Assembly: GCA_965222115.1 (NCBI GenBank) | Contig: CBDCTJ010000007.1 | Coordinates: 928,001-992,000 of the forward strand | Reading direction: 5' to 3' | DNA: 64,000 nt | Source of the DNA: Planctomycetota bacterium | GTDB lineage: Bacteria > Planctomycetota > PLA2 > JAEUHO01 | In this document: positions 2 to 49,502 of the stretch, one piece after another | How positions within the stretch are numbered: the first letter of the stretch is position 1 | Layout: each line of letters starts with the position of its first letter | The notes under the pieces: model-generated | What the model was told of the DNA's origin: nothing | What the model saw: the letters and a program-made list of their open reading frames with translations, nothing else | Database searches by the model: none | Program-made: the position numbers and the translations under genes

Positions 2-397
2 GAACTACCGCGCATTGAGGCCATGGCCCGCAAGGTCAATGCCGTACACGGCGACAAAGCGCCCGAGATGCTCGGCGGTATCCTTGAGACGTTCGTCGCG
101 CTCAAGAACGAGCTGCAGAGTCACATGATGAAAGAGGAGCAGATTCTCTTTCCCATGATTGTGAGCGGTCGCGGCGGCATGGCAATGGGCCCCATCAGTG
201 TCATGCGTCACGAGCACGACGACGCGGGCACCATGCTGGGGAAACTGCGCGACCTCACGAATAACTACGAAGTCCCCGACGGCGCCTGCAACACCTGGCG
301 CGCTCTTTGGCACGGTCTCGCCGACCTCGAGCGCTCCCTCCACGAGCACATCCACCTCGAAAACAACATCCTCTTCCCCCGCGCGTTGGGGGCGTAG
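2..397 (+). CDS. ric: Iron-sulfur cluster repair di-iron protein (Ric/YtfE/ScdA), 3' part; 5' end lies outside the window
   Basis: Frame is open from position 2 (ELPRIEAMARKV...). Hemerythrin-type motifs HMMKEEQILFP, MRHEHDDAG and HIHLENNILFP, plus PDGACNTWRAL. Confidence 0.9.
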   Translation, partial: ELPRIEAMARKVNAVHGDKAPEMLGGILETFVALKNELQSHMMKEEQILFPMIVSGRGGMAMGPISVMRHEHDDAGTMLGKLRDLTNNYEVPDGACNTWRALWHGLADLERSLHEHIHLENNILFPRALGA

Positions 398-18596: not shown

Positions 18597-19335
18597 AGCG
18601 GTTGCTTGTCCGCGTACCGGGCGTCTTGCCCTTGTAGGGCGCGCCATTGCTCGTTGCTGCATTCGCGTGCGTCGCTTTGGCCTTCATGGCCGCGCGTCGC
18701 GAGTTGATCAGAGGCGGTGCATCGGATGTGGCGGCAACAATCTCTCCGGGCACGTTGCGCCACTCGTCATAGCAACGCATGCCTTCCATGGCCAGTTGCT
18801 CCGGTTCAATCGAGAACGTCGGATACGGGTGCATGTCGCATTCACCCTCGACGATGAGAAAGTGCGATCGACGGGCAAAGTAGAGCGCGGTCGAGACGTC
18901 CCAAATGCGACGTTCGAGGCCGTACGTCGAGAGTTCATCGGGAATGGTTGCGAGCACATGCTCGAGCCCGTTGTTCTCTTCAATGTCTACCAACTCGTCG
19001 GCGGCATCTTTCGCCATCAAACCCTCGCGCAAAAGCACGCGGCCCAAGCGTTCGAATAGCACGGTGCTCTGTGCCCCCGCAACGCGACCGTGCTGAAAGT
19101 AGAGCACGCGGTCTTCATCCTGGTCGGCCACAATGAGCGCGCCGGTGAGATCCTGCGCGCGAGCAAAGTTGAGGATGTCGGCGGTCTGTGTTCCCGCGAA
19201 GTAGCCCGATGCACACACGCGAAAGAGGCTGCTGTCGCCAAAAACGCGGACATGCTGGCCCACCGCGCTTTGCAAGTAGGGATGCAGGGATTCCGGCACA
19301 AGCCGGTCAAAAAGAATGGCGATTTCACTGCCCAT
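18586..19335 (-). CDS. DUF4388 (PATAN-like) domain protein
   Basis: ADILNF...TGALIV...RVLYFQHGRVAGAQS...ERLGRVLLREG. Confidence 0.75.
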   Translation of the reverse strand: MGSEIAILFDRLVPESLHPYLQSAVGQHVRVFGDSSLFRVCASGYFAGTQTADILNFARAQDLTGALIVADQDEDRVLYFQHGRVAGAQSTVLFERLGRVLLREGLMAKDAADELVDIEENNGLEHVLATIPDELSTYGLERRIWDVSTALYFARRSHFLIVEGECDMHPYPTFSIEPEQLAMEGMRCYDEWRNVPGEIVAATSDAPPLINSRRAAMKAKATHANAATSNGAPYKGKTPGTRTSNRSTA

Positions 19336-19552
19336 TATTCCCTCGACTTATCGACGTTCTCCTGGGGGGGTGTGAGTCCATTGATTGGCAACGGGTACGA
19401 TTGACCGGGGCGATTCGCTTCCCTTCGTTTGGGTCTTCTTAGGCTGACGCCGTCCCGGCCCGTCGTAGTGGGGGTTCGGCGCGAAAACTAGACGTCTACG
19501 CGTGGCCGGTCCTCCCGCGTCATCGCCCCTGTTCGGCAGTAGACTCCCGCCC

Positions 19553-20482
19553 ATGTCGGACAACGTTCAGCGCTTTTGCCGTCTTGGACAGGAACACCTC
19601 ACTCGCCACGAACCCGAAGAGGCGTTCGTTTGGTACGGGCGCGCGCTTTCGGAAGACCCCGACAGCGTGGAGGCACTCTGTGGTCGCGGGCAGGCGGCCT
19701 ACGATCTCGGTCGCCTTCAGCGCGCCGATCGGGACTTTCGCCGTGCGGTTCAGCTGGCACGTGCGCGTTGGGAGCAAGCGTCCGCGGCGCCTTCGGATAT
19801 GCCCGCGGCGTCCACCGATTACGTGCGCGCGCTCCATGGCTGGGGCATGGTGTTGTTCTGGACGCGCAAGTATGAAAAGGCGCAGCGCGTGCTTGAGCGT
19901 GTTCTCCAACTCACGCCCACCGATCCCAACGATGTTCGCTTTCTCATCGGTGAGTGTTGCCTACGCGGAAGCGACATCGATCGCGCCGTGGCCATCTGGC
20001 AAAGCGCGCCCGACGATCCCGATGCGCTCTACAACTTGGGCTTGGCCTACTTCTATCGTGGTGAGTTTGTGCGCTCGGTGTCGGCATTGCGGCAGGCCAT
20101 CTTCGGCAATTTGTTTACGGTTGCACGCATTGTGGATGCGCACGTGCTCTCCGATGTTCCAAGTACTGCGGGAACCCATTGTCGAACCGATTTGCAATGT
20201 GAACATGCGGCCGGGCATTACATGGACCGCTGCGGCGACCTGTGGAAGGGCCGTCCAATCCTTGTGCGTTGGTTGCGCGGCATCTACGAACACCCCACCG
20301 TGCAGGCAGAACTTAAGACGCATATCGCGCACATGCGTACCCTCGCCGACCCGGAACTCTCGCCGGGTGAACGTGCTCGACTCGAGGGCGAAAACACGGT
20401 CCTCCGCAGTGAAGTACGCCTCGCAGCGACCGATGGCGATGTGGCCCGCGATCTCTGCGAATCGCTGTTTCGTATCTCATAG
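19553..20482 (+). CDS. Tetratricopeptide repeat protein
   Basis: TPR patterns (ALCGRGQAAYDLGRLQRA, ALYNLGLAYFYRGEFVRS). Start uncertain (GTG 19502 or ATG 19553). Confidence 0.85.
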   Translation: MSDNVQRFCRLGQEHLTRHEPEEAFVWYGRALSEDPDSVEALCGRGQAAYDLGRLQRADRDFRRAVQLARARWEQASAAPSDMPAASTDYVRALHGWGMVLFWTRKYEKAQRVLERVLQLTPTDPNDVRFLIGECCLRGSDIDRAVAIWQSAPDDPDALYNLGLAYFYRGEFVRSVSALRQAIFGNLFTVARIVDAHVLSDVPSTAGTHCRTDLQCEHAAGHYMDRCGDLWKGRPILVRWLRGIYEHPTVQAELKTHIAHMRTLADPELSPGERARLEGENTVLRSEVRLAATDGDVARDLCESLFRIS

Positions 20483-35082: not shown

Positions 35083-36162
35083 CTATCCCCGCAGCCGCCG
35101 TCTTCGATTTCGAAGAAAGTCCACTAAGACGAAGCCTTCCAGTCGGGTGCTATCGGCGAAATAGGCTCGCCCGCGACACGACTCGGTAAAGCGTTCCACG
35201 AACCTCTTGAGCGTGGGATCGGCCGTGAGCATGAAGGTGGTCACGTGAATGCCGCGGCGTCGGCAGCGCATGCCTTCTTCCAACGTTTTGTTGACGACCC
35301 GCTCATCCAGTCCAAACGCATTCTTGTAAACCTCACCGCCCATGCTGATGGCCGACGGCTTGCCATCGGTCAACATGAAAATCTGGCGATTCACGTGTTT
35401 GCGGCGACGAAGAATGTCTTGCGCGGCAAGCAGCCCCGCGCGCGTGTTGGTGTGGAACGGGCCATTGGAGATGTAGGGCAAGCGTTCAAGCGGCACTTGC
35501 TTGGCTTCGTCGCCGAAGAGCACAACGTCAATCGTGTCACGCGGGTACTTGGTGAGAATGAGCTCGGTGAGCGCCAGTGCCACGCGCTTGGCGGGCGTGA
35601 TGCGGTCTTCACCATAGAGCGTCATCGAGTGGCTAACGTCGATGAGCAGCACCGTGGCACATGAACTCTGTCGCTCGCGTTCGCGTACACACAGATCATC
35701 TTCACGAACGATGCCGTTGCCAGCGGTGCGCCGGGCCCAACGTTTGAGCGTGGCGTGCGGGTCGAGTTGATCCACGCGGTCGCCAAACTGATAGGGACGT
35801 ACCGTCTCAACAAATTCACCTGCGCCACCATCGCGCAGCGTGCGGTGATCCCCGTCGGCTCGGGGGGCCATCTGCGAAAACACATCCGTGAGCGCTTGTC
35901 GGCGTATGGCGCGCTCGCCCTTGGGTGTCATGCGCAGCGACTGCCCTTCACTACGAATCTCTCGCGCCTTCTCAAGCAATGATTGAAACTCTTCGATGCC
36001 GAAATCGGGACGCCATAGGCCGTAACGTTCGCCAAGTTCATCCAGCGTGTCAAGCGAGAGTTCGACGTCACCGTCCATCACAATCAGCAATTGTCGAAAG
36101 ATGCGCAAGAGGTCTTGGATGAGCGCTGCGAGCTTGTCTTGTTTCGCGTAGCGCCAGTGCAC
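35083..36162 (-). CDS. VWA domain protein (Rv0959-like partner of the chelatase-like ATPase)
   Basis: ATVLLIDVSHSMTLYGEDRITPAKRVALAL, HTNTRAGL, FMLTDGKPS. Confidence 0.9.
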   Translation of the reverse strand: MHWRYAKQDKLAALIQDLLRIFRQLLIVMDGDVELSLDTLDELGERYGLWRPDFGIEEFQSLLEKAREIRSEGQSLRMTPKGERAIRRQALTDVFSQMAPRADGDHRTLRDGGAGEFVETVRPYQFGDRVDQLDPHATLKRWARRTAGNGIVREDDLCVRERERQSSCATVLLIDVSHSMTLYGEDRITPAKRVALALTELILTKYPRDTIDVVLFGDEAKQVPLERLPYISNGPFHTNTRAGLLAAQDILRRRKHVNRQIFMLTDGKPSAISMGGEVYKNAFGLDERVVNKTLEEGMRCRRRGIHVTTFMLTADPTLKRFVERFTESCRGRAYFADSTRLEGFVLVDFLRNRRRRLRG

Positions 36163-36165
36163 GGG

Positions 36166-37668
36166 TTATTCGCCGAAGCCTGCAAACATGCGCTTGAGCA
36201 TGTCGCCGTACTGAATGCCGTCCGGAGAACTGTCTTTGGCAAGTAGCGAGGCTTGATGGAGCCCTTCAAGGACCAGCTCGCAGCCTGCGTTCAACTCGGC
36301 CGCACTCATGCGACCGCCGCTAGGGTTGAGGTACTGGTGAACCAGCTCATGCAGCGTGGGCACGGCACTCAAGGCGGCCTGCATGTCGGTTTGATCTTGA
36401 ACGACTACAGCGTGGCCTTCCGCAAACCAATCCACGATGGCTTTGTAGGGATCGTCAATAGGCTCGGCGGTTGACGCGCGCTCATTGCGTTCATAGGGCG
36501 GCGGAAAGTAGTCACCAAACGTGGCGGCAATACCCTCGCCCACAATGCGTTCGGCAACGGCCGCGGGTCCTTCGCGTTCGCCCTCAAAGACGAGTTCGAT
36601 TTTCCCTGTAACGGCACTGAGCGCCGCAAAAACATCGGCCACGCGAGCTGAGGCTTCGCGCGCGTTTTGCTGGAGCGCTCTGCGTTCGGCGTTGCTAATG
36701 ACATTTTCCAAGAGCGAGATGGGAAGGCGCGCCGAAACGCCCGAGGACTGATCGACAAACGTGCTCTTGCGCGCCTCGAACGCACAACGTTCAATCGCTT
36801 CGCGTAAGAACCATGGAATGTGAATGCGAACGTCTCCGCGGTTCACGTAGGCCTCTTGATCGGTGATCGTGCGCGCGGTTTCGAGGTCGCGCGGATAGTG
36901 CGTGAGAATCTGACTGGCGATGCGATCGCGAAGCGGCGTGATAATGGAACCGCGGTTGGTGTAGTCTTCGGGATTGGCCGAAAACACCAGCAACACATCG
37001 AGCGGCAATCGAATGGGATGGCCGCGAAGTTGGACGTCGCGCTCTTCTAGGAGATTGAGCAAGCCCACCTGAATCCGCGGCGCCAAGTCAGGGATTTCAT
37101 TCATGGCCACAATGCCGCGGTTGGTGCGTGGAATGAGTCCAAACTGCAGGGCATCTTCGTCGTCGAGCGAAATGCGCTCATTGGCGGCCTTGATGGGATC
37201 CACATCGCCGATTAGATCAGCGATCGTTACATCGGGCGTGGCGAGTTTCTCTTGATAGCGGGCCGCTCGCGGTATCCATCGAATGGGTGCGTCGTCGCCC
37301 CTTGTCTCCACAAGGGCTGTCCCGCGACGTGAGATAGGCGAAAACGGATCGTCATTGAGATCGCACCCGTCAAGCGCAGGCAACCACGGATCCAGGAACT
37401 CCGACAACTGTCGCAAGATGCGCGTCTTCCCCTGGCCTCGGAGTCCTAGCAGAATGAAATCGTGCTTGCTGAGAATCGCGTTCTCAAGTTGGGGGATCAC
37501 CGTGTGCTCATAGCCGTGGATGCCGGGCCAGCGTTCAGCGGTCGCTGTGCGCGTTTTCATGGCGGCGATCAAGTTTTCGCGCAGTTCATCGCGCACGGAC
37601 CTTGACGTCCATCCTGATGCACGAAGTGCGCCTCGCGTAGTGGGTGGGGAGGGAGACGGGGTATTCAT
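36166..37668 (-). CDS. Magnesium-chelatase-like AAA+ ATPase (Rv0958-like)
   Basis: LGLRGQGKTR, EKLATPDVTIADLIGDVDPIK, NEIPDLAPRIQVGL, SANPEDYTNRG. Confidence 0.92.
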   Translation of the reverse strand: MNTPSPSPPTTRGALRASGWTSRSVRDELRENLIAAMKTRTATAERWPGIHGYEHTVIPQLENAILSKHDFILLGLRGQGKTRILRQLSEFLDPWLPALDGCDLNDDPFSPISRRGTALVETRGDDAPIRWIPRAARYQEKLATPDVTIADLIGDVDPIKAANERISLDDEDALQFGLIPRTNRGIVAMNEIPDLAPRIQVGLLNLLEERDVQLRGHPIRLPLDVLLVFSANPEDYTNRGSIITPLRDRIASQILTHYPRDLETARTITDQEAYVNRGDVRIHIPWFLREAIERCAFEARKSTFVDQSSGVSARLPISLLENVISNAERRALQQNAREASARVADVFAALSAVTGKIELVFEGEREGPAAVAERIVGEGIAATFGDYFPPPYERNERASTAEPIDDPYKAIVDWFAEGHAVVVQDQTDMQAALSAVPTLHELVHQYLNPSGGRMSAAELNAGCELVLEGLHQASLLAKDSSPDGIQYGDMLKRMFAGFGE

Positions 37669-37872
37669 TGCTCGTGACAACTCCGAGTTCGCGGATGCGC
37701 AGTGTGCCCTCGTGCGCCTCATGGTAGTGGGGTCCAAGGGGCCACGCCGGTCCAACAGAGGCCGGGGTCACCTTGGATTCTGCGAGATCGTCCACGCATC
37801 TCTTGATCAATCTCGACCGGGGCGCTCGGTTGTGCGATACGGTGTGCCGCAGCGCGCTACGGAGAATGCACC

Positions 37873-38289
37873 ATGCCCTACGATCCAGCCCTTGTTGCCC
37901 CCATGCGAAACGAACTCGCAAGCCTCGGCGTCGAGGAACTCATGACGGCCGACCAGGTGCGTGACTTTGTTGCGCGCGACGGCACGAAGTTCATTGTCAT
38001 CAACTCCGTGTGTGGTTGTGCCGCGGGCATGGCGCGCCCAGCCGTGAGCATCGCCAAAGGACACACGGTGCAGCCCGACGCCATCGGCACCGTGTTCGCT
38101 GGACAAGACCTCGACGCCACGGCAGCGGCCCGCGCGGCGTTTGGCCAAGTACCACCGAGCAGCCCGTCGATGGCACTACTCAAAGGCAATGAACTCGTGT
38201 GGTTTTTGCCCCGTCACATGATCGAGAACCGCGACGCACAGACGATCGCCTTCGACATCGTTTCGGCGTTTGACGAGCACTGCCAGTAA
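37873..38289 (+). CDS. Bacilliredoxin BrxA/BrxB (YphP/YqiW) family
   Basis: INSVCGCAAGMARP, TVFAGQD, PPSSPSMALLK. Confidence 0.95.
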   Translation: MPYDPALVAPMRNELASLGVEELMTADQVRDFVARDGTKFIVINSVCGCAAGMARPAVSIAKGHTVQPDAIGTVFAGQDLDATAAARAAFGQVPPSSPSMALLKGNELVWFLPRHMIENRDAQTIAFDIVSAFDEHCQ

Positions 38290-42807: not shown

Positions 42808-44028
42808 CTAGAGCATCGTTCCCCGCGCCACGCGATCGAGGACGTCGTCAATGCGACCCCCGGTGTGAGGAATGGCGTGAATCCCCACCGCACGCAGTAG
42901 GGTCAATGCGCGATCGCTGAATCCGGTGGCGACAACGGCACGACACCCCAAAAGACTTTGCAGAAACACCTGCGCGTTGCCTACGCCATCCACGTGGCGA
43001 CGGAGATCATGCGGACGTCGTCGCGTGCCCAAGTGGCGGATGGAATCCGGCATTACGCGAAATACATGCAACACGTCGGCTCGCTCAAGACTCGTATCAA
43101 TCAGTACACCGTCGCGGGACGCTACGGCCACAAGCTGCGTACGCCTGCGTGGTAAGTGAGTCCCGCCGTTGTCTTCCGGCGATTCCATAAGCACATGCGC
43201 CAACCCGTCATCGGGAAGCGTGTGGGGATCGACGACTTCAAAGCGCGACGGTCGCAGCCACGCACGCAAGAGCCCTTCCACCGACGAACGCTCGTCGTGG
43301 TCGATCCGACCAAAGTGCTTTGCAACCGATGCTGTCGCGACACGCATTTCGTGCGTAGTGGGCATCGTGAGCCGAAAGTCATGGGCCGCGATATTCGGCG
43401 TGGGCGTCAAGAGATCCATGCGTTCCGCACCCGCCGCCCGCGCACGCATCGCCAGCGTCTCGACGTCTTCAAAATTAACGAGGGGGTGCACCGTGGTGCG
43501 AACGGCCACGGGCAGTCCCGCCGCATGCGCCAATCCAAACGCGCGGTGGCTGGACTCGACATACAACGCCGCCGCACGATCAACGTCGAGCGTCTCGCCG
43601 CGAAAGCGCGCACCCCGAACGAGTTTGCGGGCGCTACGTTCCGTTGCAGCGTCCATTCGGACCACGACATACGCGACGCCCAGCGACGTGAGTTCGCTCG
43701 TGTATTCCGACAGCAACGGACCATCAATAACCATGCCCACCCGCACGTCGGGGTGGTGGTCCTGAAGCAATGCCAGCGCACGCAAGATGTCGGCGGCACT
43801 GGCAAGCGGATCGCCCGGGCCGTCAAACTCAACGACCAACGGTCCTTGGCGATGGCGTCGCGCGCGCCCAGTAAGTCGCAGAACGTCGGGCACGTCCAGG
43901 TGGACCGGCATACGCGATGGGTCGCGATCCAATCGGTGAAGCAACGGCGTGGATGCCGCCGCCAGGCGCAAGAGCTGCACGCGAAGCTTGGGGTGCGCAT
44001 CAGAGGATGGGTGCGGCGGCGAGGTCAT
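42808..44028 (-). CDS. NifB-like protein (radical-SAM-like barrel plus NifX/NifY-like domain) lacking Fe-S cysteines
   Basis: GPGDPLA and collinear NifB-like segments; C-terminal VAVASRDG...LLGCRAVV...LRAVGI. No CxxxCxxC. Confidence 0.75.
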   Translation of the reverse strand: MTSPPHPSSDAHPKLRVQLLRLAAASTPLLHRLDRDPSRMPVHLDVPDVLRLTGRARRHRQGPLVVEFDGPGDPLASAADILRALALLQDHHPDVRVGMVIDGPLLSEYTSELTSLGVAYVVVRMDAATERSARKLVRGARFRGETLDVDRAAALYVESSHRAFGLAHAAGLPVAVRTTVHPLVNFEDVETLAMRARAAGAERMDLLTPTPNIAAHDFRLTMPTTHEMRVATASVAKHFGRIDHDERSSVEGLLRAWLRPSRFEVVDPHTLPDDGLAHVLMESPEDNGGTHLPRRRTQLVAVASRDGVLIDTSLERADVLHVFRVMPDSIRHLGTRRRPHDLRRHVDGVGNAQVFLQSLLGCRAVVATGFSDRALTLLRAVGIHAIPHTGGRIDDVLDRVARGTML

Positions 44029-44184
44029 GCATGAATGATTCTCAGTCGAGGCCGTCCATGGGCCAAACATCTCCGCCTTGAACCGACTCGGATATCATCA
44101 CGCGCATTGCTTCGATGCCCGATTCCTGTCACGGTGACAGAACGGCACAGATCACATACGACAATTCGCGATCTGGCAGTCGCG

Positions 44185-44958
44185 ATGCGGCAATTGCGAT
44201 ATGGGTTTCTTTTGACCACGCCAAGCTCAGCGCCTAAGCATCCCGCTCCCGAGCGTACGTGGCGTCCGCTCAGTGGTTTGGCCGTATTGAGTTTCATCTT
44301 GGCAGTTGCCGGCGTCGTTGTGTCGCTCTACTGGTGGTGGGTAGAGATCATTCCATTCATATTGGGATTGGGCGTGCTCTTCGGCGTGTCGCGTCGTTTG
44401 CGCCGTGGGCATGCTCTGGCCATCGCGGCCGTTGTGATTTCGTTGGCTGTTGGTTCGTGCAGCTATCGCGCCAATGCGGACCACAAACGTCATATTCGCG
44501 AAGTGTCCACGTCGCTCCTCTCCGCGCTTAGGCCCGATATCGCAGGCGACGTGCGTGATGATGCGATGCGCCCTTGGTTTCGCACCGACGCCCTGGATCG
44601 TGGCGTGCTCGATGACGTCATCAAGCGCCACCATGTTGTCGAAGCGGAGTTTGGATCATTTCAAGGCGAGGTCGATACCGGCGGCTTCTTTGATAGCGCA
44701 TTCCAGCGTTGGACTCAACCGCATCACTTGGTTGAGATCGGAAACGATACACCTGCGCCGCCACTCCAGGTCGGCACCGTGTGGTGGGTTCCCGCGAGCT
44801 ACGAACGCGGCACGGTGTTTGTGGGCGTCCATTTGTTTCAGGGCAAGCCCGATCTTGGGCAAATGTTGGGACTCGCGCGCGAAGGCAAAATGAAACCGGG
44901 CGTCCGCGCGCCGATTGTGGCCGATTTGCGCTTCTACCGCCAAGGGGACGGTAAGTAG
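44185..44958 (+). CDS. Membrane protein (DUF4190-like N-terminal TM bundle)
   Basis: SGLAVLSFILA...ILG...RRGHALAIAAVVIS. Start uncertain (ATG 44185 or TTG 44212). Confidence 0.65.
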   Translation: MRQLRYGFLLTTPSSAPKHPAPERTWRPLSGLAVLSFILAVAGVVVSLYWWWVEIIPFILGLGVLFGVSRRLRRGHALAIAAVVISLAVGSCSYRANADHKRHIREVSTSLLSALRPDIAGDVRDDAMRPWFRTDALDRGVLDDVIKRHHVVEAEFGSFQGEVDTGGFFDSAFQRWTQPHHLVEIGNDTPAPPLQVGTVWWVPASYERGTVFVGVHLFQGKPDLGQMLGLAREGKMKPGVRAPIVADLRFYRQGDGK

Positions 44959-46700: not shown

Positions 46701-47486
46701 ATGAAGCGCGCGTCGATGAGCGAACGAACGTCGCGCGGTGATGCCGCTTCGCAGGGCCAGTTGGGCTTGTGGCGTGGGGCCAAGTGGATTCGGTTGGGAC
46801 GCGTTGCGGGCGTATCGATTGCGATTGATGCCGGGTTGCTGGTGTTGTTGGCCGGTGGACTCGTGTTGGGTCTCGCGGCCCCGTCGCCGGGTACCCGAGC
46901 ACTCTCGATCGCGCTCGTGTTGGCATCGGTAGTGGTTCATGAGTTGGGCCATGCGTTGATGGCGCGCACGCTCGGCGTTTCGGTGGGCGGTGTCTACTTG
47001 CATGTGGTTCCCTTCGCAGCCATTGATGCGGGTGAACCCGAATCCAAAAGCGATGGGAACAAAATGTTGTGCATTGCGCTTGCCGGGCCGATGGCGAGTA
47101 TGCTCGTTGCAAGCGTCTGCTGGCTCCTGGGCGCGCGCTTTGCGCTCGGCGACACGTCGGCCGAGCGTCTTTTGGATCTACCGCCCTTGACGCTCTTGCT
47201 ATGGGTGAATGCGGTGATGGGCACAGTGAACCTTTTGCCCGCATTGCCGGTGGACGGTGGGCGCGCGCTTGAGGCCTGGGTGCGCCCGCGCGTTTCGTGG
47301 CGACGACGACACGGCATTCTTGCGGGTTGCGGATGGGCCGTGGCCCTTGGCGTAGCCGTTGTCGCCTATGTCACCTCCATGCCGCTTCGGCTTCCGATCG
47401 CGTTGCTTGCCGGCATCTTCCTACTCACCGCCATTCATTTGGGTACCGCCATCTTTCGCCGACCATCTGAAAATGAACGCACCTAG
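46701..47486 (+). CDS. Site-2 protease (peptidase M50)
   Basis: HELGH, IALAGP, NLLPALPVDGGR. Confidence 0.93.
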   Translation: MKRASMSERTSRGDAASQGQLGLWRGAKWIRLGRVAGVSIAIDAGLLVLLAGGLVLGLAAPSPGTRALSIALVLASVVVHELGHALMARTLGVSVGGVYLHVVPFAAIDAGEPESKSDGNKMLCIALAGPMASMLVASVCWLLGARFALGDTSAERLLDLPPLTLLLWVNAVMGTVNLLPALPVDGGRALEAWVRPRVSWRRRHGILAGCGWAVALGVAVVAYVTSMPLRLPIALLAGIFLLTAIHLGTAIFRRPSENERT

Positions 47487-48324
47487 CCCTACGGCACGAT
47501 TTACAGGCACGTCCACCTACGTAGCGACCGACGACTTGCTCGTGGCCGTCAACGCGGCGTTAATCTTGGAGCGCCCCCTACTGATCAAGGGGGAGCCTGG
47601 CACCGGCAAAACAGTGTTGGCGCATGAAGTCGCCACGGCCCTCAAGCGTCCATTGATTGAGTGGCATATCAAGTCGTCAACGAAGGCGCAGAACGGTCTC
47701 TATGAGTACGATGCGGTGGCACGCCTGCGCGATTCACAGCTCGGCGACGATCGCGTACACGACATTCGCAACTACATCGTGCGTGGCAAACTGTGGGAGG
47801 CGTTTACGCAGTCTGACGGCGCAGTGCTCTTGATCGATGAAATCGATAAAGCCGACATTGAGTTTCCCAACGATCTCCTGCAGGAACTCGACCGCATGGA
47901 GTTTGACGTCTATGAAACCAAGGAGACGGTACGCGCCAGCACGCGTCCGCTTGTGATCATCACGTCCAACAACGAAAAGGAGCTACCCGACGCGTTCTTG
48001 CGCCGTTGTTTCTTCCACTACATTCGCTTTCCCGACCCCGAAACGATGGCAGCGATCGTGGAAACCCACTTCCCTGGCATCAAGCAAGACGTCATGCAGC
48101 AGGCCCTCACGGCCTTTTATGGCATACGCGATGTACCGAGTTTGAAAAAGCGCCCATCCACCTCCGAACTCCTCGATTGGATTCGACTCTTGACCGCGGA
48201 GGGCATTCGACCCGAGGCGGCCGCGGGTGAAACCGGATTGCCCCCGCTGCATGGCGCGCTGCTCAAGAACGAGCAGGACGTGGCCATGACGCGGCATCAC
48301 CAGTCAAGAGGGCGCCGACGGTGA
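47473..48324 (+). CDS. MoxR family AAA+ ATPase (PA2707/CoxD-like)
   Basis: GEPGTGKT, LYEYDAVARLRDSQ, LIDEIDKADIEFPNDLL, TSNNEKELPDAFLRRC. Confidence 0.95.
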   Translation: MNAPSPTARFTGTSTYVATDDLLVAVNAALILERPLLIKGEPGTGKTVLAHEVATALKRPLIEWHIKSSTKAQNGLYEYDAVARLRDSQLGDDRVHDIRNYIVRGKLWEAFTQSDGAVLLIDEIDKADIEFPNDLLQELDRMEFDVYETKETVRASTRPLVIITSNNEKELPDAFLRRCFFHYIRFPDPETMAAIVETHFPGIKQDVMQQALTAFYGIRDVPSLKKRPSTSELLDWIRLLTAEGIRPEAAAGETGLPPLHGALLKNEQDVAMTRHHQSRGRRR

Positions 48325-49502
48325 GTGCCCTCTTTGGCCAGTTCTTCTACGCGTTACGTGCCTACGATGTGCCTGTGAGTCTGCGCGAATACCTCACATT
48401 GCTTGAGGGTGTGGCCAAGGGACTTGCCAGTTTTCGTGTGGACGACTTCTACGTATTGAGTCGCGCATGCCTCGTCAAGGATGAGCGGCATATCGATAAA
48501 TTTGATCGGGTATTTGGCCACATCTTTCGCGGCATGGAATTGTTAACCGATCCGCAGCAGGAGATTCCTGAGGCATGGCTGCGCCGTTTGGCCGAGCGCT
48601 TCCTCGGCCCCGATGAATTGGAGAAGATCCAGGCGCTGGGCGGTTTTGATGAACTCATGCGCACCTTGATGGAGCGACTCAAGGAACAACAGGAGCGGCA
48701 TCAGGGCGGAAACAAGTGGATTGGCACGGGCGGAACGTCACCTTTTGGGGCGTGGGGCGCCAATCCCTTTGGCGTGCGCATCGGACAGCATCGATCGCGT
48801 CACCGTCGCGCCGTCAAGGTGTGGGACGCACGCGAGTTTCGAGATTTTGATGACAGTCGCGAACTGGGTACACGCAACATCAAGGTGGCGCTGCGGCGAT
48901 TGCGGAAGGTCGTACGCGAAGGGCGCGAGTGGGATCTCAATGTGGACCACACCATTCGCGCCACCGCCAAGAACGCGGGCTATCTCGACATGGTGTGGGA
49001 GCGCTCGCGTGAAAACCGTGTGAAAGTGTTGCTCCTGCTCGATGTGGGTGGCTCGATGGACGATCACGTGCAATCCGTGGAAGAGCTGTTTTCTGCGGCG
49101 CGTGCGGAGTTCAAGCATCTCGAAGTGTTCTATTTCCACAACTGCCTCTATGAGGAAGTGTGGCGCGACAATCAGCTACGTCATCGCGACCGCACCAGCA
49201 CGTTGGAGCTCATGCACACCTACGGCCCCGACTACAAGGTGATGTTTGTGGGCGACGCCAGCATGAGTCCCTACGAGATCACCGAAGTTGGAGGGTCCGT
49301 CGAACATTGGAATCCCGAGAGCGGTCAAATGTGGCTGCGTCGCGCGCGGCGCACGTGGAAGCACTGTGTGTGGATCAATCCCGTGCCGGAGGCCCACTGG
49401 GGATTTACCTATTCCATTCAGATGATCCGCAATCAGTTCGAGGGGCGGATGGTGCCGCTCACGCTTGAAGGGCTCGAGCGTGCCACCAAGGCGTTGAGCT
49501 AA
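48321..49502 (+). CDS. VWA domain protein (CoxE-like partner of MoxR)
   Basis: GGNKWIGTGGTSPFG, LLDVGGSMD, FVGDASMSPYE; GTGA overlap with the ATPase. Confidence 0.93.
   Translation: MSALFGQFFYALRAYDVPVSLREYLTLLEGVAKGLASFRVDDFYVLSRACLVKDERHIDKFDRVFGHIFRGMELLTDPQQEIPEAWLRRLAERFLGPDELEKIQALGGFDELMRTLMERLKEQQERHQGGNKWIGTGGTSPFGAWGANPFGVRIGQHRSRHRRAVKVWDAREFRDFDDSRELGTRNIKVALRRLRKVVREGREWDLNVDHTIRATAKNAGYLDMVWERSRENRVKVLLLLDVGGSMDDHVQSVEELFSAARAEFKHLEVFYFHNCLYEEVWRDNQLRHRDRTSTLELMHTYGPDYKVMFVGDASMSPYEITEVGGSVEHWNPESGQMWLRRARRTWKHCVWINPVPEAHWGFTYSIQMIRNQFEGRMVPLTLEGLERATKALS

Follow-up and report, generated by a model that had tools for sequence, protein, structure and literature searches.

A NifB descendant without cluster ligands in a family of Planctomycetota that lacks nitrogenase-type proteins

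Nitrogenase owes the core of its metal cofactor to the enzyme NifB, whose oxygen-labile, three-cluster step is regarded as the defining one in making that cofactor. Here we describe P0001, a NifB-like protein encoded in a 64,000-nucleotide stretch of a Planctomycetota genome (assembly GCA_965222115.1, contig CBDCTJ010000007.1, positions 928,001 to 992,000; the whole of this stretch is called the window below). It is well supported that P0001 is a descendant of NifB, keeping both a partial TIM barrel of the NifB type and the NifX-like domain fused to it. Neither P0001 nor any of its aligned homologs, which we call the planctomycete family, has a cysteine where NifB holds its clusters, and the bacteria that carry the gene, called the host family below, lack nitrogenase-type proteins.

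P0001 resembles NifB in sequence and fold

The reading frame of P0001 encodes 406 amino acids, has no internal stops and contains exactly one cysteine, C362; an initial annotation, made from the DNA sequence alone, had likewise counted a single cysteine from the methionine at 44028. Among NCBIfam models, nifB (TIGR01290) fits P0001 best: residues 65-202 match profile positions 81-218 at E 2e-13 and 49.8 bits, below the curated cut-off of 343.65 for this equivalog model. Among Pfam models, PF02579 (Nitro_FeMo-Co) matches residues 308-400 with 36.5 bits, over its cut-off of 26.3, and PF04055 (Radical_SAM) gives no match to P0001 at E ≤ 1; precomputed PF04055 matches exist for some of its homologs. 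A phmmer search of the PDB matched the N-terminal part of P0001 to NifB chains only (6y1x at 1e-5; 7bi7, 7jmb and 7jma at about 2.5e-4), and the ESM Atlas returned only NifB or radical-SAM-like clusters. When the profile of the planctomycete family was compared by hhalign with a profile of 24 true NifBs, the two aligned over 371 columns at E 1.3e-45. The initial annotation had proposed that P0001 is collinear with NifB, and a MAFFT alignment reproduces this correspondence motif by motif, with every motif it listed falling where it was claimed to fall. The GPGDPL motif is common to true NifB, the planctomycete family and the second cysteine-less family described below, and G70, P71 and G72 are invariant in 79/79 planctomycete family members.

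We then compared a predicted structure of P0001 with known folds. An AlphaFold2 model built on 79 homologs reached a predicted local distance difference test score (pLDDT) of 87.6 and a predicted template modelling score (pTM) of 0.76. Foldseek placed five NifB chains on top (E 6e-15 to 5.5e-13) and matched the C-terminal domain to NifX (9ian_F). By VIA-align, the NifB entries 7jmb, 7jma, 6y1x and 7bi7 gave Z scores of 24.2-24.5 with root-mean-square deviations (rmsd) of 2.0-2.5 over 208-231 residues; in the alignment to 7jmb_A, model residues 13..269 lie on 22..277 (Z 24.5, rmsd 2.5, 230 residues aligned). The structural neighbours are radical-SAM enzymes throughout, the next-best of them after NifB at Z 16.9, and this gap indicates that the fold is NifB-like specifically and not just radical-SAM-like. 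The TIGR01290 match, albeit under its cut-off, the profile alignment and the predicted structure had all been proposed as checks in the initial annotation, and each agrees with it.

The cluster ligands of NifB are absent

Alignment of three groups of NifB-like proteins. Its rows are 32 true NifBs, every one of which has HPC and CX3CX2C; 28 proteins of a further cysteine-less family, labelled OC; and 80 members of the planctomycete family. Two N-terminally truncated OC rows, P0110 and P0134, were left out. Ligand columns (n = 12) are those columns of the barrel, or of its N- and C-terminal stretches, where 80% or more of the NifBs have Cys or His.

The ligands of NifB described in an excerpt of PMC10114646 are the three cysteines of CX3CX2C, the N-terminal HPC cysteine, a beta-1 histidine and a beta-3 cysteine that anchor K1, a plug-loop cysteine, and the two C-terminal cysteines of K2. 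The twelve ligand columns of our alignment correspond to these described ligands, and none of the 80 planctomycete family members has a cysteine at any of them. At the CX3CX2C columns P0001 has P28, R32 and a gap; the arginine is kept in 75/80 members, and the third of these columns is a gap in all 80, as is the NifB-specific plug loop with its Cys and Glu. P0001 also has a gap at the HPC column, G98 at the beta-3 Cys column, and H244, D245 and S248 at the C-terminal H-C..C columns, and the beta-1 His column is occupied in the family mainly by R, V or A. No CxxxCxxC or CxxC motif occurs in 79/79 planctomycete family members. The absence of CxxxCxxC, HPC and CxxC that the initial annotation had noted for P0001 thus extends across the family.

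The NifX-like domain has changed as well. In NifX, H35 is the histidine that binds NifB-co (PMC13128457, excerpt). At the corresponding column, His is found in 28/32 NifBs and 27/28 OC proteins and in 0/80 planctomycete family members, which have P (44), T (20), S (8), A (6) or R (2) instead; the residue of P0001 is S313, which stands at the first His of the HFGHA motif that the initial annotation had reported missing. The column of C362, by comparison, holds Cys in 79/80 planctomycete family members, 30/32 NifBs and 27/28 OC proteins and is conserved in all NifX-like domains compared. The two-domain architecture that had been called intact is therefore so only in part: the barrel and the NifX-like domain are kept, but the plug loop is deleted and the NifX-type His is lost. 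Because of these two losses a role of P0001 as a metal-cluster binder is unlikely. As far as sequence can exclude an activity, P0001 would be unable to carry out radical-SAM carbide insertion or to hold NifB-co as NifX does.

The gene is conserved in a host family without nitrogenase-type proteins

A word-indexed search recovered 79 homolog clusters with 42-76% identity, and all named ones are labelled Planctomycetota; the next match was a true NifB at E 1e-4. When 1.84 billion representatives were searched exhaustively with HMMER, the family clusters and fragments were again followed by a true NifB, at 1e-22. The short matches P0083-P0093 and P0104 were considered as stand-alone domains and rejected, as they are fragments or broken calls of planctomycete family members.

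Across 401 Planctomycetota genomes, strong matches (E ≤ 2.5e-155) occurred only in the window's GTDB family, in 16/16 genomes and the window's own genome. None of the six genomes from the sister family of the same order had a strong match, and the remaining 384 genomes of the phylum sample did not yield the gene. Weaker matches elsewhere in the sample ranged from 5.9e-8 to 2.7e-32, and the six that we inspected are all true NifBs, with HPC, CX3CX2C and 12-20 cysteines. Within the host family, the gene is present in 29/29 genomes and 16/16 genera with one match each, one of the 29 being a fragment at a contig end.

We examined 40 copies of the coding sequence, 28 of them distinct (12 loci are present in duplicate; the short fragment L035 was dropped), and found no in-frame stop in any copy. 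The four closest informative pairs gave dN/dS values of 0.057, 0.113, 0.100 and 0.163; distant pairs are saturated, and their median dN/dS of 0.48 is not meaningful. Across the 79 clusters, 37 columns are invariant. There is good support for vertical inheritance of the gene, which belongs in single copy to the core genome of one Planctomycetota family. P0001 and its 76%-identical relative P0002 share a long internal branch (0.83 in a quick 75-row tree), and both score among the lowest against the family profile (E 1.1e-154); together these suggest that the P0001/P0002 lineage is evolving faster.

The genome that carries the window (4.55 Mb, 90.3% complete) gave a best nifH match of 34.8 bits, against a cut-off of 394, and no match to Oxidored_nitro (PF00148). 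The only other match of the nifB model in this genome is a MoaA-like gene, and the genome has no second Nitro_FeMo-Co domain. PF00148, which would reveal nifDKEN-type genes, did not exceed its cut-off in any of the 29 host-family genomes, in line with the initial annotation, which had seen no nif cluster. The genome encodes two heme-copper oxidase subunit I genes. It also has 13 ordinary radical-SAM (PF04055) genes, the P0001 gene not being among them, so that only the P0001 gene has degenerated. We conclude, with good support, that the host family is able to respire oxygen and lacks nitrogenase-type proteins.

A second cysteine-less NifB-like family is linked to nif genes

Cysteine loss among NifB relatives is, judging from the alignments, not unique to P0001. 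Many of the best 150 representatives belong to a group of proteins of about 370-445 amino acids without CX3CX2C and with the NifX His kept. We label this group OC; its NCBI name is 'NifB/NifX family molybdenum-iron cluster-binding protein'. Radical-SAM cysteines are found in 0/28 aligned members, and the plug loop is deleted in 26-28/28. The ESM Atlas cluster nearest to P0001 is OC, with 356 members, Thermodesulfobacteriota as the commonest phylum and a Radical_SAM Pfam match on 43%. NCBIfam has no model for either OC or the planctomycete family.

OC genes stand in nif operons; examples of OC genes lie at L041:7839-9119 and L049:636-1934. In a Desulfopila metagenome-assembled genome the OC gene follows nifH-PII-PII-nifD-nifK. 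That of Desulfogranum mediterraneum is preceded by a nifK-type gene, and nifEN-type genes as well as a true nifB stand downstream of it. We surveyed 81 genomes of a Desulfobulbales-like order, taking E ≤ 1e-105 as an OC match; a best E value of 1e-96 to 1e-98, seen in three genomes, was assigned to true NifB and not to OC. An OC-type match was found in 37/81 genomes, all of them within the 52 that have PF00148 genes, and in none of the 29 without. In 37/37 genomes the match lies 90-309 bp downstream of the nifK-position PF00148 gene on the same strand, as determined by comparing coordinates by hand. OC is a candidate for an unrecognised nif accessory gene.

A single in-frame TAG or TGA interrupts each of several nifK-, nifE- or OC-type matches in these Desulfobulbales-like genomes (G418:C27:14514-15764 and 19185-20372; G438:C160:14998-16248; G450:C104:11000-12250; G466:C380:117-1187). 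These could be sequencing errors or recoded codons.

The evidence on how OC and the planctomycete family are related points both ways. They have the plug-loop deletion in common, as well as six derived columns, including N126D and T179, against one column common only to the planctomycete family and NifB. A quick 75-row tree puts the planctomycete family on the OC side of a 99% branch, and a quick MoaA-rooted tree of 36 rows joins the two with a Shimodaira-Hasegawa-like approximate likelihood-ratio test (SH-aLRT) support of 90; this joining goes against the long-branch attraction to the outgroup that would be expected for the planctomycete family. A careful unrooted tree of 31 rows, however, recovers all three groups as monophyletic in a three-way split, and the approximately unbiased (AU) test made with the rooted 36-row tree does not reject a grouping of the planctomycete family with NifB (log-likelihood difference 1.8, p 0.44). 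The hhalign score of the planctomycete family is 337.8 to NifB and 307.8 to OC, so profile scores do not support OC as its sister; OC itself matches NifB at E 1.6e-87 and is much closer to NifB than the planctomycete family is to either. On these sequence data the two families may go back to one origin or to separate ones.

We also considered a joint reading, which we think distinctly doubtful. It would make OC and the planctomycete family one old, undescribed clade of Fe-S-free NifB derivatives, in which OC would be a nitrogenase accessory cofactor chaperone encoded after nifK. The planctomycete member would descend from it as an orphan and would have been exapted, in bacteria that respire oxygen, for sensing or carrying; SAM or a related adenosyl metabolite would bind in the cluster-free barrel, with arginines replacing the SAM-anchoring iron.

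A possible role as a cluster-free binding protein

The initial annotation had proposed that P0001 was repurposed as a pseudo-enzyme. Our data support a selected, repurposed and cluster-free NifB derivative outside nitrogen fixation; such a derivative may be non-catalytic, and the data do not single out any one of the sensor, binder and scaffold roles that the annotation had offered. Our own preferred reading is tentative, with a probability of about 0.45: P0001 may be a cluster-free binding protein for an anionic or adenosyl-type small molecule. According to this proposal, the former cavity for the cluster and S-adenosylmethionine (SAM), at the C-terminal ends of the barrel strands, would have been relined with charged residues that are invariant in the family, namely R32 (in the cluster-Cys column), E67, D102, R124, D126, R143, R177 and T179. 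The GPGDPL turn and N185, common to all NifBs, are retained. The NifX-like domain has turned very basic, with a gain of the invariant residues R295, R344, R399 and R402. SAM, S-adenosylhomocysteine (SAH) or a nucleotide would be the first ligand candidates, and the ligand would be held or reported, not transformed.

The pattern of conservation that led us to this proposal is as follows. Nineteen columns are conserved in all three groups, eight of them in the barrel (G70, P71, G72, D73, G103, A127, N185 and G200), and we take these eight to lie at the strand ends or close to them, in the part of the fold with which radical-SAM enzymes bind SAM. Residues specific to the planctomycete family (at least 90%) fall where NifB has an invariant N, T or C: N is replaced by D102, T by R124 and N by D126, and R32 stands in the cluster-Cys column. 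D102, R124 and D126 are conserved at 94-100%. In the family (n = 80) the barrel has a median isoelectric point (pI) of 5.8 and the NifX-like domain one of 11.1, along with a net charge of +6 and 13% Arg; in NifB (n = 30) the corresponding pI values are 7.8 for the barrel and 6.0 for the NifX-like domain.

Several points weigh against a small-molecule pocket. The charged residues may be salt bridges that fill the old cavity and not the lining of an open one; GPGDPL and N185 may be kept for folding alone; and the acidic barrel and the basic NifX-like domain may just pack together. The gene neighbours, which are envelope-like and belong to a collinear block, yield no functional hint either. If the cavity is indeed filled, by pairing R32 and R124 with D102 and D126, P0001 could be a ligand-free, protein-binding adaptor or 'placeholder' that serves a client other than nitrogenase and resembles NifY/NafX, for which occupation of docking sites in place of cofactor carriage has been proposed. 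The lack of the NifX-type His in all 80 family members would agree with such a role. We regard this as unlikely, since nothing points to a client, the 29 genomes encode no nitrogenase-like proteins, the neighbours look extracytoplasmic, and fused longer forms were not found at E ≤ 1e-10 among 8000 scored candidates, although this last is weak evidence. The same barrel residues, D102, R124 and D126 together with E67, R143 and R177, occupy barrel columns that are invariant N, T or C in NifB, or lie close to such columns, and purifying selection on the gene is strong; these residues could instead have formed a new, non-radical active site, metal-independent or Mg-dependent, built from conserved Asp, Glu and Arg. 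P0001 resembles no enzyme outside the radical-SAM group in Pfam, NCBIfam, the ESM Atlas or among its structural neighbours, however, and we judge a neo-enzyme quite improbable.

Turning to the NifX-like domain, its pI of 11.1, its charge and arginine content and its four family-specific invariant arginines would also suit a binder of nucleic acid or another polyanion. Neither Pfam nor Foldseek matches a nucleic-acid-binding family or fold, genuine NifX has a positive pocket too, for an anionic metal cluster (PMC13128457, excerpt), and high GC content inflates Arg use generally, all of which makes such a binder very improbable. Still less probable is a residual metallocluster carrier that would use C362 and non-Cys ligands, perhaps by bridging subunits. 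C362 is kept in 79/80 members and some homologs carry the NCBI name 'NifB/NifX family molybdenum-iron cluster-binding protein', but this name is automatic, each chain has a single Cys, the NifX ligand column lacks a conserved His, and C362 is equally conserved in true NifB, for which other residues are described as ligands (PMC13128457 and PMC10114646, excerpts). Finally, the scores far under the cut-offs of the curated NifB and radical-SAM models might suggest that the gene is decaying, or that its frame is open by chance in DNA rich in GC; as a check on decay, the initial annotation had proposed looking for orthologs and for neutral dN/dS. With orthologs in 29/29 genomes, no in-frame stops, dN/dS of 0.06-0.16, 37 invariant columns and a confident fold prediction, we find decay or chance hardly credible.

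Gene start and neighbourhood

The features of the P0001 gene and the adjoining membrane-protein gene are listed in Table 1. Translation may begin at either of two ATG codons, 44028 or 44070. The ORF (open reading frame) listing for the gene spans 42808..44070, and the upstream start would add 14 residues, among them a second Cys. No clear ribosome-binding site precedes either candidate ATG, and homolog N-termini differ in length in the alignment of the planctomycete family.

Table 1. Features of the P0001 gene and its neighbour, in window coordinates
Feature	Position	Strand	Remarks
Coding sequence of the Cys-less NifB-like protein P0001	42808..44028	-	406 aa; stop codon 42808-42810
Possible 14-codon N-terminal extension	44029..44070	-	alternative ATG at 44070
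Degenerate radical-SAM (beta/alpha)6 barrel, residues 13-269	43222..43992	-	VIA-align to 7jmb_A; TIGR01290 match
Remnant of radical-SAM cluster loop, residues 28-37, PLLHRLDRDP	43918..43947	-	alignment
GPGDPL motif, residues 70-75, end of beta-2	43804..43821	-	alignment
NifX-like (Nitro_FeMo-Co) domain, residues 296-404	42817..43143	-	PF02579 match; Foldseek NifX match
S313, column of NifX H35 (NifB-co-binding His)	43090..43092	-	alignment
C362, sole conserved Cys	42943..42945	-	alignment
Membrane protein, 257-307 aa in family	44185-44958 (ORF listed from 44035)	+	no Pfam family

The P0001 gene is placed between a lipoprotein-like gene and a membrane-protein gene, within a collinear block of about 12 kb that extends across the host family. 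The lipoprotein-like gene is downstream in 27/29 distinct loci. The membrane-protein gene adjoins in 24/29 (20 divergent, 3 co-directional upstream, 1 downstream), and a gene for a HEAT/vWA protein is nearby in 25/29. Single genes have been inverted in place with the order kept, namely the membrane-protein gene in L029, L031 and L034 and the NifB-like gene in L021. Because adjacency is kept only through such in-place, single-gene inversions in a collinear block, we claim no binding for the neighbours; the synteny reads as inheritance, not as a functional link. Pfam searches of the block neighbours gave no Fe-S or nif hint.

With a single-protein query the membrane protein was found in 17/401 genomes, all of the same host family. 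Its three hydrophobic segments, its basic RGR loop, in which RG is invariant, and its lipobox-like GSC make up a topology that suggests an extracytoplasmic place for it; a hydrophobic N-terminal stretch suggests the same for the HEAT/vWA protein.

Other features of the region were noted in passing. Two gene pairs of AAA+/vWA type, MoxR-like AAA with VWA_CoxE and AAA_5 with DUF58/VWA_2, lie near the locus (window 47359-48324 and 48321-49502 on the plus strand; 35083-36162 and 36166-37755 on the minus strand), and in a crude synteny screen they belong to no neighbour family common to more than two loci. A strong match to Disulph_isomer (PF06491, E 4e-52) at window 37873-38289 on the plus strand lies in the conserved block downstream of the P0001 gene. 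None of 28 upstream regions matched a sigma-54 promoter. A conserved promoter-like pair, TTGC followed after about 17-19 bases by GGTACACC, occurs in 11/28 upstream regions, 10-50 bp before the predicted start (L008, L012, L013, L014, L017, L021, L023, L025, L026, L030 and L033), and is absent from the window's own upstream region.

Discussion

P0001 can be set beside four kinds of protein. With true NifB it has in common the two-domain order, GPGDPL, G103, N185, R336 and C362; NifB differs in having CX3CX2C, the K1 and K2 ligands, the plug loop and the NifX-type His, and nif genes are absent from the genome that encodes P0001 and from the host family. OC resembles the planctomycete family in having no radical-SAM cysteines and a deleted plug loop, and is unlike it in keeping the NifX His and in being encoded directly after the nifK-position gene. 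NifY and NafX of Azotobacter have, like P0001, a NifX-like fold without the cofactor-binding His, and they are proposed to be placeholders, not carriers (PMC13128457, excerpt). Unlike P0001, they act in nitrogenase assembly and have no NifB-type barrel, and we liken them to P0001 by description, not by sequence. The NifB homologs of non-diazotrophic methanogens provide a further case of a NifB relative retained without nitrogenase. They appear essential for growth and methanogenesis, and the NifB of diazotrophic methanogens makes L-clusters (PMC13474568, excerpt for both statements), whereas P0001 is without any cluster ligand.

We found no description of a Cys-less NifB in the full-text literature, subscription-only papers and supplements being outside the scope of our search, and none appears in the excerpts of a paper on NifB diversity (PMC5715403), a survey of the Nif core (PMC11773926) and a 2026 review (PMC13474568). 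The homologs carry database names such as 'nitrogen fixation protein NifB', 'radical SAM protein' and 'NifB/NifX family molybdenum-iron cluster-binding protein'. On planctomycete homologs, NifB- or cluster-binding-type names are misleading for surveys of diazotrophs.

With its place after nifK in 37/37 genomes, OC may interest researchers of nitrogenase assembly more directly, as a candidate new accessory factor. As for the planctomycete family, a NifB-NifX scaffold under selection without cluster ligands or nitrogenase implies a use of that scaffold that is independent of Fe-S chemistry, and the P0001 family would offer a natural model for the NifB fold, one that is probably stable to oxygen.

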